Shown in pieces: positions 1 to 3,636 of a DNA stretch of 39,479 nucleotides. The stretch comes from Coleofasciculus sp. B1-GNL1-01. Lineage in GTDB: Bacteria; Cyanobacteriota; Cyanobacteriia; Cyanobacteriales; Coleofasciculaceae. Position 1 is the stretch's first letter. Each line of letters begins with the position of its first letter. The stretch lies in the NCBI GenBank assembly GCA_040220235.1, contig JAVJTO010000027.1, one strand, 5' to 3'. Both the position numbers and the translations under genes were made by a program. The notes under the pieces are model-generated. The model was given only the letters and a program-made list of their open reading frames with translations. It was not told the DNA's origin and did not search any database.

Positions 1-810
1 ATTGGTAGAAAGACACATCATCAACCGAAATCATGCCAATTGGCAGGAGGCAGATAAATTGGCATTTAAGTCAAAGAATCTGTACAACTTCTCTAACTAT
101 TTGTGCCGTCAACACTTCTTTGAGACGGGGAATCGGTATACGCTACCAACTCTCTACCATTTAGTCAAAGACAGTGAGTCTTATCGGGCAATGCCGACCA
201 AAGTCTCGAAACAAATCATAAAAAAGCTGGTGGAGACTTGGTTTTCTTTTGTGGAGGCGAAGAAAGACTGGTCAAAGCACCCAGAAAAATACAAGAGTGA
301 ACCCCGCCTTCCTAGATATAAGGACAAGGTTAAAGGTCTCTCACATCGTCATTTACCATCACGAGTCCATATACAAGGCAGACCTAAAACAGGGACGTTG
401 CCACTTATCAATGAGTAACATCAGTGTCCCGACTAAGGTAGAGAATATTGCCGAGGCGCGGATTGTTCCTAGCTGTAACTGCTATATTTTGGAGATTGTC
501 TATGAAGCACCCGAAGTTGAGTTAATTCAGTCAGAGTGGGTAGTGCGAACTGGCAGGTATCAAGGTAGTCATAATCGAGGAAAGTTACACGTCAAAAACA
601 TCAGCTATTGACCTAGAGTCACCTTGCAAGCAATCAAAATATGCTGGGAAGCGGGTTAAAAGAGGTTTGTTTAAGTCCGGGAGTGGACGTGTGATTAATG
701 CGGACATCAATGGAAGTATCCAAATTATCCGCAAGTATCTTCCAGAGGCGTTCACCGCCGAGGGAGTAGTGAGCTGTGCCGTGCAGCCAATACGGGTCAA
801 TCCAGTTTGA
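1..810 (+). pseudogene. tnpB: IS200/IS605-family TnpB (RNA-guided endonuclease) pseudogene, frameshifted and internally deleted
   Basis: N-terminal ...VERHII...SKNLYN...PRYKDK (2-~340); +1 frameshift near the TCTCTC at ~336-342; continues IVIY...ARIVP...YILEIVY to SEWV (~540); then jumps in another frame to CELAGIKVVIIEESYTSKTS...GKRVKRGLFKS...INADINGS...PIRVNPV* (544-810). The RuvC-I (DLG) and RuvC-II segments are missing; the start lies outside the window. Confidence 0.92.
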
Positions 811-902
811 AAGACTGAACCTATAAGTTTCTATAAGTTTAGCTTAACGCCGGAAGCCTCACGCCATATTTGTACTCGAATTGGCGTGAGATGGATAGGT
901 GG

Positions 903-1049
903 TCAATCGATGGGGTTCAATACCCCTGAGATTGACAACTTCCGTATCAACTCACGAATAACATCGGATTGGGTTCTCTCTGTCATTAGACAAAATTTGA
1001 CGAGGTGTTCATATTCTCTATCTGATACTCGTGTTGTTACCTGTTTCAT
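903..1049 (-). CDS. Small ribbon-helix-helix (CopG/MetJ/Arc-like) DNA-binding protein, 48 aa, absent from the ORF track
   Basis: Manual translation: MKQVTTRVSDREYEHLVKFCLMTERTQSDVIRELIRKLSISGVLNPID*. Alternating beta-strand (VTTRV), helix A and the SDVIRELI helix-B signature of RHH proteins. Confidence 0.8.
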   Translation of the reverse strand: MKQVTTRVSDREYEHLVKFCLMTERTQSDVIRELIRKLSISGVLNPID

Positions 1050-1086
1050 CGTTGTCAGTGTGCTTTCAATGTGCTACCATTTTAGC

Positions 1087-1361
1087 GTACAGGTTAAACA
1101 AAACTAAAAGCTAACCGCTTACCTGTGCATTGAACCTTGACAACCTGGAATATGGGGTTCCGTCCAGAAACAGACTACTTATAGTCGCATCTGTGGACGG
1201 GTAAAATTCCAGCAGTACAGAGGTATGAACACATCTTTGTATTGTTCCGGCGCGGAGGGGCATCCCGTGTCGTTAATAAAGCCAAGAGTCTCCTAAGCAA
1301 TAGCTGGATTGTCTTGGAAGCCTACACCATACTGAGTTTAGTTGGTGTAGGAGTATGTCAC
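1087..1361 (+). ncRNA. Putative omega-RNA (reRNA)-like structured RNA at the element right end
   Basis: Non-coding stretch with nested or serial stems: 1087-1094/1121-1128, 1145-1151/1206-1212, 1160-1166/1194-1200, 1173-1177/1182-1186, 1213-1224/1233-1244, 1282-1287/1312-1317, 1321-1329/1343-1351. Several stems use G-U pairs, favouring the + strand; ends at the IS right-end tetranucleotide. Confidence 0.6.
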
Positions 1362-1362
1362 T

Positions 1363-3636
1363 CTACACGGTGATATCCCGATCAGGCAGGGGCATTAACC
1401 ACTGTTGTAATTGATTTAGGGGATAACTTCCGCCACACAATAGCAGGTGATCTTGCTGTCGGATTTCGGCATTGCCATCGGGAAAGGGGATAAACTTTCC
1501 TTCTCGGCGAATTGCCTGCACCTGAATCCCATATTGGCGTCGCCAATGGAGTTGGGACAGGATTTGCCCATGGGCGGGACTGTCTTCGGGAACTAACACC
1601 CACTGACAGGGAGTACTGGTGGCGGGATTTTCCATTTCCCCCTCTGCCAATTTCTTAAACGCAGACAGTTCATCGGGTTCACCCACCGCTAAAAGGTGAT
1701 CACCTTCCTCCAAACTCACCCCAGCATCAGGATAATCGATTTCCTCACCCTCAGCCCGACGAATCGCCACCAAGCTAACCCCGGTTAAGCGGCGAATATC
1801 GGCTTGTTCTAACGTCATACCCGTCAGTGGAGAATTCTCTGGCAAATCATACCACTTACTATTCATCATCTCAGCCGCCGTCCGTAAATCGCGGGCAATT
1901 TGAGACTGAGGTTGTTCGGGGCGCAAATCCAGATAATGGGAACTGCGAATTTTTTCCATTTCCTGCTGAATCATCCAATTGGGTACACCAATTCCTGACA
2001 TCAAATGTGTGGCTAACTCCAAAGATGCCTCAAACTCCGGTTGTACCACTTCTCGCGCCCCCAATTGGTACAGCAATTCGATCTCCCGATCCTTATTCGC
2101 CCGCACGACGATATCTAAATTGGGGTTTAATTCTAGCGATCGCTTTAAACATAACCGACTACTCATGGCATCCGCTAAGACAATCACCATGGATTTTGCC
2201 CGTTCTACCCCGGCTTTGTCCAAAACGTGTAAACTCGCCGCATTGCCGTAAACATAGGGAATTCCCGCGTCGCGTAATTGCCCAATCACCTGTTCTGACT
2301 GCTCAACCACCACAATCGGATAATTATGCTCTCGCATCAGTCGCACTAAATTGCTACCACTGCTTCCATATCCACAAATCACCACATGATCGTTTAGCTG
2401 TTGGCTATTAAGGGATACGGCTTTCGGTGTTTCCATCGGTTCAAAATACCGTTGTAAGGGCGGAAAATTCTCTAACCAGTTCAATGCCAGGGGGGTTAAT
2501 CGTAACAGAAACGGTGTCACTATTAAGGTCACTGCTGTTGTGCCTAAAATCAACAAATAGACAGGGCGAGACACCAATCCCAGCGTCTGCCCTTCACTGG
2601 CTAACACAAACGAGAATTCCCCAATTTGAGCTAACCCCAGACCTGCCAGAATTGCTGTTCTTAAGGGATAGCCAAATAGTTTGACAATTGGTGTTATAAT
2701 TAAAGCTTTGCCTACCGAAACCAGCAAAACCAATCCCAAAATTAATTCCAGGTTAGTCCACAGAAAAATCGGATCAATTAGCATCCCAATCGCCGCAAAA
2801 AAGAGGGCAGCAAAGACATCCCGCAAGGGCTCCACATAAGTCAGGGTTTGATCGGCATATTCCACCTCGGAAATCATTAACCCCGCCACAAACGCCCCCA
2901 TCTCGATAGAGAGTCCTAACTGTTCCGTCAGCAGGGCAATTCCTAGACATAAACCCACAACCCCGAGTAAAAATAACTCTCGGCTTTCGGTACGGGCAAA
3001 GAATCGTAATAACGAAGGAATCAACCATATCCCCACAGCGATAGCACCAGCTGCAAATAGACCAATTTTCAATAGGGCAAGTCCTACGGCTATACCAATC
3101 ACTTCAGTGGGTTGGTCTAAAGCCGGGAGTACTGCTAACATTAACCCCAATGCCAAATCTTGCACCACCAAAATCCCTAGCATGACTTGCCCATGGGGGG
3201 TTTCGGTTTCGTTGCGTTCCATTAGGCATTTAAGAACCACCGCCGTAGATGACAACGACAAAGTTGCCCCGAGAAACACACCTTGGGCGGGAGACGTGAC
3301 CCAACCCATGCCCAAAGAGACTAATGTGGTAACTAAAATAGTCAGTACCACTTGGAGTCCACCACCGCCGAGGGCAATCTTTTGCACTTTTTTCAGTTCC
3401 GCCAGGGAAAATTCCACGCCGAGGGCAAAGAGCAAAAATGCCACACCAAACTGAGCCAGGGTTTCAATTTGGATTACCTCTTTAATTAGACCCAAACCCG
3501 CCGGACCCACAATCATACCCCCGACGATATAGCCCAAGAGTGGGGGTTGACGGCATAAGGATGCCAAGAGTCCGCCAGCCGCTGCTGACGCCAGAACAGA
3601 TACGAAGTCGATAATCAGTCGGAAGTCTTCTTGCAC
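1363..3636 (-). CDS. CPA2 cation:proton antiporter (Kef/YbaL-like) with TrkA-N and two TrkA-C (RCK) domains
   Basis: ~12 TM helices with LSSTAVV, ILVVQD, GAFVAG and LAQIGEFSFVL motifs; Rossmann HVVICGYG; C-terminal RCK_C repeats; GTG start. Confidence 0.93.
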   Translation of the reverse strand: MQEDFRLIIDFVSVLASAAAGGLLASLCRQPPLLGYIVGGMIVGPAGLGLIKEVIQIETLAQFGVAFLLFALGVEFSLAELKKVQKIALGGGGLQVVLTILVTTLVSLGMGWVTSPAQGVFLGATLSLSSTAVVLKCLMERNETETPHGQVMLGILVVQDLALGLMLAVLPALDQPTEVIGIAVGLALLKIGLFAAGAIAVGIWLIPSLLRFFARTESRELFLLGVVGLCLGIALLTEQLGLSIEMGAFVAGLMISEVEYADQTLTYVEPLRDVFAALFFAAIGMLIDPIFLWTNLELILGLVLLVSVGKALIITPIVKLFGYPLRTAILAGLGLAQIGEFSFVLASEGQTLGLVSRPVYLLILGTTAVTLIVTPFLLRLTPLALNWLENFPPLQRYFEPMETPKAVSLNSQQLNDHVVICGYGSSGSNLVRLMREHNYPIVVVEQSEQVIGQLRDAGIPYVYGNAASLHVLDKAGVERAKSMVIVLADAMSSRLCLKRSLELNPNLDIVVRANKDREIELLYQLGAREVVQPEFEASLELATHLMSGIGVPNWMIQQEMEKIRSSHYLDLRPEQPQSQIARDLRTAAEMMNSKWYDLPENSPLTGMTLEQADIRRLTGVSLVAIRRAEGEEIDYPDAGVSLEEGDHLLAVGEPDELSAFKKLAEGEMENPATSTPCQWVLVPEDSPAHGQILSQLHWRRQYGIQVQAIRREGKFIPFPDGNAEIRQQDHLLLCGGSYPLNQLQQWLMPLPDRDITV

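Follow-up and report, generated by a model that had tools for sequence, protein, structure and literature searches.

How is an untranslated guide RNA made and kept without a tnpB mRNA? This question is raised by a 519-bp element in a 39,479-nt stretch of the genome of Coleofasciculus sp. B1-GNL1-01 (assembly GCA_040220235.1, contig JAVJTO010000027.1; this whole stretch is hereafter called the window and its genome G000), and the family to which the element belongs offers a candidate answer amenable to base-by-base dissection. With a probability of roughly 0.7, judged from sequence comparison and structure prediction, we read it as a non-autonomous element of the IS200/IS605 family, inserted after TTAG, in which tnpB has been replaced by a structured leader and which supplies a stand-alone guide RNA for homing. 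Features lie on the plus strand of the window unless stated otherwise.

Insertion of the element after TTAG

The original prediction, which had described an IS605-type mobile cassette without tnpA and tnpB, suggested a search for empty-site alleles. Two were found in the same genome, at the ends of other copies of the transposon in which the element is nested (hereafter the host element; G000:C152 and C102). These alleles read GTTTAG|TCTACACGG, whereas the window reads GTTTAG, 519 extra bases and TCTACACGG. Comparison of the host-element copies lacking the insert with the window places the element at 843–1361, directly after TTAG and without target duplication; the left end, first put at 849, has to be moved to 843, as the loci parsed below also indicate. 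The target motif TTAG (839–842), the predicted transposon-adjacent motif (TAM), lies outside the element, whose right terminus at 1361 is formed by TCAC. Entry on the 3' side of a constant motif, with no duplication, is a signature of the IS200/IS605 family (Kapitonov 2016, PMC4810608).

Both ends carry subterminal hairpins and lack terminal inverted repeats, as is typical of the family. Specifically, the left-end hairpin (858–890), a predicted TnpA site whose motif recurs at other loci, folds as DNA with a z score of −3.8, and the right-end hairpin (1321–1351) with one of −4.3; in neither case did any of 200 shuffled sequences equal it. GAAGCC precedes both, and the two end hairpins noticed at the outset were borne out. 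Assignment of the left hairpin to the right end of the upstream tnpB is ruled out by the empty alleles.

Further copies, searched for with positions 1050–1365, were found in 58 of 101 genomes, among them 45 of the 51 that belong to the same family, and many are full-length; this tally counts one weak match in a genome marked as unpublished, on which nothing else rests. The left end could be parsed in 37 of 56 loci and is preceded by TTAG in 36 of these 37, one match being misplaced, a count that is partly built in because the regular expression demanded [TA]TAG. The relatives measure about 520 bp when they carry the ribbon-helix-helix (RHH) gene described below and 370–425 bp when they do not. 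G000 contains one copy only of this element type, and the whole element gave only two partial matches against plasmids. By their sequences, the relatives stand at dozens of unrelated sites, so the family has spread to multiple sites. The view of a mobile IS605 cassette that lacks tnpA and tnpB and carries an omega-RNA is supported.

The right part of the element is a TnpB omega-RNA core

About 275 nt of base-paired non-coding sequence had been taken as a single omega-RNA-like structure. The region 1087–1361 does fold (z −5.6; 0 of 200 shuffles equal), but it comprises two different things, a leader (1087–1248) and an omega-RNA core (1249–1361). The latter consists of three stem-loops, SL1 (1249–1271), SL2 (1282–1317) and SL3, which is the right-end hairpin (1321–1351), and of a pseudoknot, GGCAU/AUGUC (1259–1263/1355–1359), beside the end motif TCAC; three stem-loops and a pseudoknot have been called universal in omega-RNAs (bioRxiv 10.1101/2023.11.20.567912). 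Counted from the end, the core begins at 113 nt and joins about −103 to −3 by pairing; it is 77% identical over 113 nt to the 3' end of tnpB at G000:C30 (1252–1362); closer tnpB ends occur in relatives, with up to 95% identity over 57 nt.

In an alignment of 28 core sequences, 95.7% of the cells pair, 18 of the 32 pairs change on both sides, and double-change cells number 107 versus 32 after shuffling. The fifth knot pair is gapped in eight of the 28 rows; by eye it reads U-A, A-U or G-C, types that span stand-alone and tnpB-bearing ends. When core types were defined by hand, 96 of the 106 parsed loci paired four or five of the five knot positions, 56 of the 162 loci being left unparsed. In conclusion, by homology, stem-loops and pseudoknot, positions 1249–1361 are a true TnpB omega-RNA core. 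The stand-alone copies have a common SL1 base of their own and several versions of SL2, one of them common to tnpB elements, which suggests repeated core exchange rather than one recent deletion.

A conserved boxA leader stands in place of tnpB

Instead of the simple loss of tnpB at ~1085 that had been proposed, we find tnpB replaced, at about 1086–1249, by a conserved leader without detectable tnpB similarity. As a decayed tnpB the leader was rejected: blastn against seven tnpB loci gave only 10–15-nt matches (E≥0.38), and its three frames matched six TnpBs at E≥1.4 only. With ten G000 TnpBs as queries, so that distant TnpBs could be missed, no TnpB similarity was detected within 1 kb upstream of the leader at any of 162 loci; a full 1 kb was available for 117 of them. 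Likewise, no partner gene linked to the leader was found among the 162 loci.

The leader opens with a 5' hairpin (1087–1128), whose loop AACC may pair with GGUU at 1156–1159. This second knot is weakly supported: RRCC precedes boxA in 112 of 142 loci, where 67 would be expected, and no covariation was seen. Next comes a boxA-like motif, GAACCTTGACAA (1132–1143), one base from the boxA of the cyanobacterial rRNA spacer, GAACCTTGAAAA (PMC8461337). A boxA behind a hairpin near the 5' end is the arrangement of boxA leaders, and Nus factors might bind here. The motif is followed by a conserved knotted domain (1145–1215) formed by the stems P3 (1145–1151/1206–1212) and P4 (1160–1166/1194–1200) and by a 3-bp pseudoknot of many pair types (1191–1193/1213–1215); the alignment of loci also reveals a conserved loop, UAnnGGUU / GUAAAA, and a variable hairpin (1174–1186). 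A variable linker hairpin (1216–1242), seen in the fold and in relatives, completes the leader.

In 47 chosen sequences, P3 and P4 together show 219 double-change cells against 61 after shuffling, and slid controls fall below 50% paired. At least seven consecutive P3 pairs form in 98 of 120 pattern matches, although the pattern did not demand pairing, and the 3-bp pseudoknot is fully paired in 122 of 134 distinct loci, in more than ten pair combinations. Covariation, the lack of which would have counted against the original prediction, is present in leader and core alike. Searches of Rfam 15, with HEARO and the small ribozymes included, returned no relevant family at E≤5 in the window, no relevant match at E≤1 in six relatives and none at gathering score in 12 loci; the leader would thus be an uncatalogued pseudoknotted fold.

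A pseudoknot between boxA and GGGUUC was ruled out on two grounds: the C belongs to a covarying pair of P4, and the boxA of Bacillus lacks complementarity. Likenesses to Cas12k tracrRNA, a group I intron and twister are without Rfam support. As a separate observation, boxA-like motifs have 20 matches genome-wide in G000, some at CRISPR-like leaders and a tRNA cluster, and they head non-coding-looking stretches at C14, C34, C74, C83, C98 and C35; such a motif may serve as a handle for finding non-coding RNAs.

Distribution of the leader across core types and phyla

A pattern of three short motifs retrieved 118 stretches from a species-genome collection, 59 of whose 64 parts were covered, and two viral contigs. 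Almost all records that bear a name are cyanobacterial (Planktothrix, Scytonema, Nostoc, Symploca, Moorena, Coleofasciculus and others). Four non-cyanobacterial matches (L092, L126, L138 and L164), which pair poorly and lack a model match, were attributed to chance and excluded before the 162-locus counts. A model of the knotted domain matched 31 of 151 genomes of the same phylum, with up to at least 28 matches per genome. In a Bacillota sample it matched 3 of 151 genomes, and in a third phylum none of 151.

An omega-RNA-like core follows the leader in nearly all loci read. The downstream sequences form six multi-member clusters among 115, and, sorted by core type, at least six types, several of which match reading frames of different tnpB ends. 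In two Bacillota matches the fold and the knot are kept, a TnpB-type core follows, and the boxA is GTTCTTTGATAAC-like, close to the rRNA boxA consensus of B. subtilis (PMC13753749). The Bacillus element (L260, L261, L263–L276), 347 bp long and without open reading frame, is widespread in Bacillus genomes and plasmids and has different flanks in 10 of 10 loci read. Of 379 plasmid records that match it, 372 are from Bacillus, and 142 records reach at least 80% query cover. These selfish RNAs carry a host rRNA boxA signal in host-specific form.

On the viral contigs L195 and L196 there are relatives that share the leader and the core type and have a divergent RHH (62–67%), a possible transfer route. 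Small dispersed repeats sit inside boxA or SL2 of L236, L237, L241, L244, L014 and L052.

The RHH gene and the predicted promoter

The 48-aa RHH gene reported on the minus strand (903–1049) was confirmed as an intact reading frame. The AlphaFold model, an extended N-terminus followed by two helices, is RHH-like, and the match to Pfam RHH_1 (E 0.008) is weaker than the curated cut-off. The Foldseek list is headed by ParG, AmrZ, TacA1, NikR and CopG, all with E>0.1 and none at E≤0.001; a PDB sequence search gave no significant match. Thirteen of 14 candidates are close homologues, some of them named CopG-family RHH. The ratio of non-synonymous to synonymous substitution rates (dN/dS) relative to the window copy lies at 0.05–0.26 in eight of ten distinct open copies, the other two being saturated at silent sites, and one further copy is frameshifted. 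By these ratios the gene is under purifying selection; it is also optional, an RHH match being present in only five of the 162 leader loci, and most relatives lack it. A second hairpin (902–936; z −2.8 and −3.1, 2 of 200 shuffles equal) covers its stop and C-terminal codons.

The gene probably derives from a tnpB-bearing parent type. Relatives with tnpB, the same left end and an RHH gene had been anticipated, and L030 has exactly this layout (left end, RHH, tnpB, right end), with an RHH protein 65% identical and the tnpB start directly behind the −10 box. In the window, a predicted sigma70-type promoter, TTGTCA-17-TACCAT with an extended −10 TG (1052–1080), would start transcription at ~1087. 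This point, at which the first stem of the RNA begins, lies as far behind the −10 as the tnpB ATG does in L030. Both hexamers are visibly kept among RHH-bearing copies, and a loose census of the −10 gave 137 of 156 versus 92 shuffled. Self-regulation, with the RHH protein repressing the overlapping divergent promoters, would fit the divergent layout.

In L034, a copy deleted between two TTGACAAC repeats (window 931–940 and 1135–1144) has lost the RHH gene, the promoter and boxA and kept both ends; L035 is similarly short.

Candidate enzymes in trans and a weak hint of expression

The proposal that the element borrows TnpA and TnpB is compatible with the gene content of G000, where intact candidates for both were found. 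An intact, full-length Y1 TnpA (NF033573, above cut-off) lies at C63 beside the same left-end motif and TTAG, so that a Y1 transposase with the same ends, as expected for IS200/IS605, is present in trans only. A 397-aa TnpB with three visible RuvC acidic motifs and the same SL1 loop and end is encoded at C30, and the left-end motif also lies upstream of tnpB at C30, C133 and C167. Their use in trans by the window element is an inference.

Contigs of relatives spanning about 1110–1360 were found in RNA libraries of four of four studies; they give no strand, ends or level, break at repeat edges and are a weak hint only. One contig, identical to 677–901 (depth 2.5, library X3), lies outside the RNA region. 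Library X9 gave no match, and library X14 is probably DNA.

Origin of the predicted guide

The element lies inside the right end of another tnpB element, the host element (1–842), of which other copies or pieces occur at G000:C152, C102, C84 and C120. This comprises most of its right end and a broken tnpB of a different family, which has frameshifts and, compared with the C152 copy, lacks ~385 bp internally. Beyond the insertion lies a Kef-like cation/proton antiporter gene (1363–3636, minus strand), whose stop codon comes from the end of the host element. On entering at CGG, the latter took the place of the final antiporter codons, and it appears to have shortened the C-terminus of the protein. 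An orthologue is present in seven of eight congeners, and neither element adjoins the gene end in any of the seven.

The predicted guide (1362–1377) has a length of 16 nt borrowed from ISDra2 (PMC10097598), not from this RNA. A guide starting at 1362 and antisense to the antiporter gene had been proposed; native antisense antiporter sequence does begin at 1368, but the first nine bases (1362–1370) are the end of the second transposon. Action on the antiporter transcript is not supported: the 12-nt flanks number 99 different sequences among 106 parsed copies. Because flanks differ at nearly every copy and the overlap stems from nested insertion, the antiporter, on this sequence comparison, is not a selected target and the overlap is a by-product. 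TTAG with the first ten guide bases matches the two empty host copies (2 found versus 0.07 expected under uniform composition), and no such match extends to 11 bases. ISDra2 requires guide positions 1–12 (PMC10097598), which makes cutting at these partial targets, C102 and C152, doubtful.

Proposed mechanism and alternative explanations

Precise insertion, presence at many independent sites, an intact core, a conserved leader and a selected RHH gene are all established at the level of sequence comparison; the steps that follow draw on the biology of IS605. The promoter likely makes a stand-alone guide RNA. TnpA in trans would excise and insert the element (Meers et al., bioRxiv 10.1101/2023.03.14.532601), TnpB in trans would bind the last ~113 nt with the flank and cut TTAG plus flank after excision, and repair of the scarless empty site from a sister copy would restore the element; of the possible roles, such empty-site homing is the most likely. 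At about even odds, the leader serves an RNA that is not translated in the way that translation once served the tnpB mRNA; boxA might recruit host Nus factors, and the knotted fold might protect or position the 5' part until it is trimmed. The RHH gene would be a dispensable relic of the parent. A broader reading, which we advance only tentatively and do not favour, is that of an ancient cross-phylum RNA gene, whose portable boxA-pseudoknot leader makes any TnpB scaffold a self-expressing trans guide, swaps cores and has an activity of its own; if true, this activity would be self-processing or exonuclease blocking, new for natural guide RNAs.

Several observations weigh against the homing guide. 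The shorter relatives L016 and L019 appear to keep the core without the leader, which would then not be obligatory. Taken by itself, the promoter scan does no better than chance (2 sites versus 1.4 expected), and related sequences inflate the controls of the covariation counts. The only same-type TnpB found in G000, an assembly of 172 pieces, goes with a core 77% identical and a different SL2. In the RNA libraries no transcript of the window locus was seen, the contigs being those of relatives and possibly DNA. Cyanobacteria are generally said to lack Rho, which bears on what boxA might do here.

Among the alternatives, the leader could be a machine of its own (a self-processing ribozyme, a nuclease-blocking knot or a site for another protein), in a transcript that does more than guide, for instance by titrating TnpB. 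Invariant unpaired UAnnGGUU / GUAAAA segments and a covarying pseudoknot across two phyla and six core types speak for this, and small ribozymes come to mind in view of the A-rich linker within a pseudoknot; we consider it unlikely, however, given the Rfam results, the omega-RNA-like core behind the leader in nearly all loci and the lack of a linked partner gene. The element might instead be a passive miniature, in which nothing but the DNA ends counts and the RNA structure is a leftover from its ancestors. Degenerate or deleted copies exist (L008, L034, L035, L056), and TnpA demands right-end hairpins anyway, yet compensatory changes run throughout leader and core, far from the ends, and the conserved promoter and low RHH dN/dS render this quite improbable.

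Two alternatives remain. An RHH protein acting on TnpB as antitoxin, so that the cassette dampens TnpB rather than using it, has been proposed in print for an archaeal RHH-TnpB clade (PMC10691335), and here RHH is conserved even without tnpB in cis. The archaeal genes are co-oriented with a rearranged TnpB, whereas here the RHH gene is divergently oriented, with a shared promoter region of 37 bp, and most copies lack it; we give this idea very little weight. Least credible of all, and already largely refuted, is a host-domesticated antisense regulator of the antiporter gene: the flank is indeed antisense to the last codons, but such an arrangement recurs in none of the seven congeners with an orthologue, and the flanks differ at nearly every copy.

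Comparison with known systems

Effector-less omega-RNAs and palindrome-associated transposable elements (PATEs) are already described. The PATE-like omega-RNA elements of Geobacillus stearothermophilus (Meers et al., bioRxiv 10.1101/2023.03.14.532601) likewise combine IS200/IS605 ends, absence of tnpA and tnpB and an omega-RNA used in trans. They are without any protein gene, whereas the window element keeps RHH and, because this gene is intact and under selection, is not a PATE in the strict sense; its RHH-less relatives of 370–425 bp are. In place of tnpB it carries the conserved 160-nt leader, and the available part of that report describes no boxA or structured leader. The stand-alone omega-RNAs of Altae-Tran et al. 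2023 (PMC10691335) are similarly mobilised and effector-less, were shown to work in trans, and their biological role is called unknown; the portion of that paper at hand describes no 5' module common to effector clades, whereas here the leader is common to at least six core types.

ISDra2 (Nakagawa et al. 2023, PMC10097598) has a comparable ~115-nt scaffold, a pseudoknot that joins the first loop to the final bases, and a guide outside the right end; its scaffold starts at −116 and pairs −105 with −3, and the window element differs in its ends, TTAG/TCAC. The ISDra2 RNA upstream of −116 is tnpB coding sequence, trimmed and dispensable, in contrast to the non-coding, conserved upstream RNA of the window. 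Cyanobacterial elements of the L030 type (IS1341-like) resemble the window element in left end, RHH, promoter position, SL2 and SL3; unlike it, they carry tnpB, and the basal stems of SL1 differ (AGAGCGG/CCGUUCU versus GGCGCGG/CCGUGUC). Leaders of rRNA operons also place a hairpin and then a host-type boxA near the start of a non-coding transcript (PMC8461337; PMC13753749); unlike them, the window boxA rides a selfish element and precedes an unrelated knotted domain, Nus binding being putative.

No description of the leader was found in the literature covered, supplements and subscription papers lying outside it, nor was any literature found joining boxA, TnpB and antitermination. To the known elements the locus adds same-genome empty alleles, the nested origin of a guide, selection on RHH and a range that reaches Bacillus, where boxA is of the host's type. 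As a natural 5' module, the leader might also serve to increase the amount of guide in TnpB editing tools.

Other nested and immobilised copies

GG bounds the ends of the host element, which also contains short CTATAAGTTT repeats (window 1–842 and 1362–1370); by these features it may be IS607-like. Nested insertion recurs in G000: an autonomous element with tnpA, tnpB and the same left end (C63:21179–23617, L074) is inserted at TTTAG in another tnpB. A second stand-alone RNA (C30:32290–32700, minus strand, L071) has the same leader and a different omega-RNA core type. In two congeners (L068, L069; ~850–1140) a leader-bearing RNA without a recognisable left end is fixed upstream of a pyrophosphatase gene, possibly an old immobilised copy, and at the corresponding site of G000 (C163:50335–50440) only the hairpin and boxA remain.

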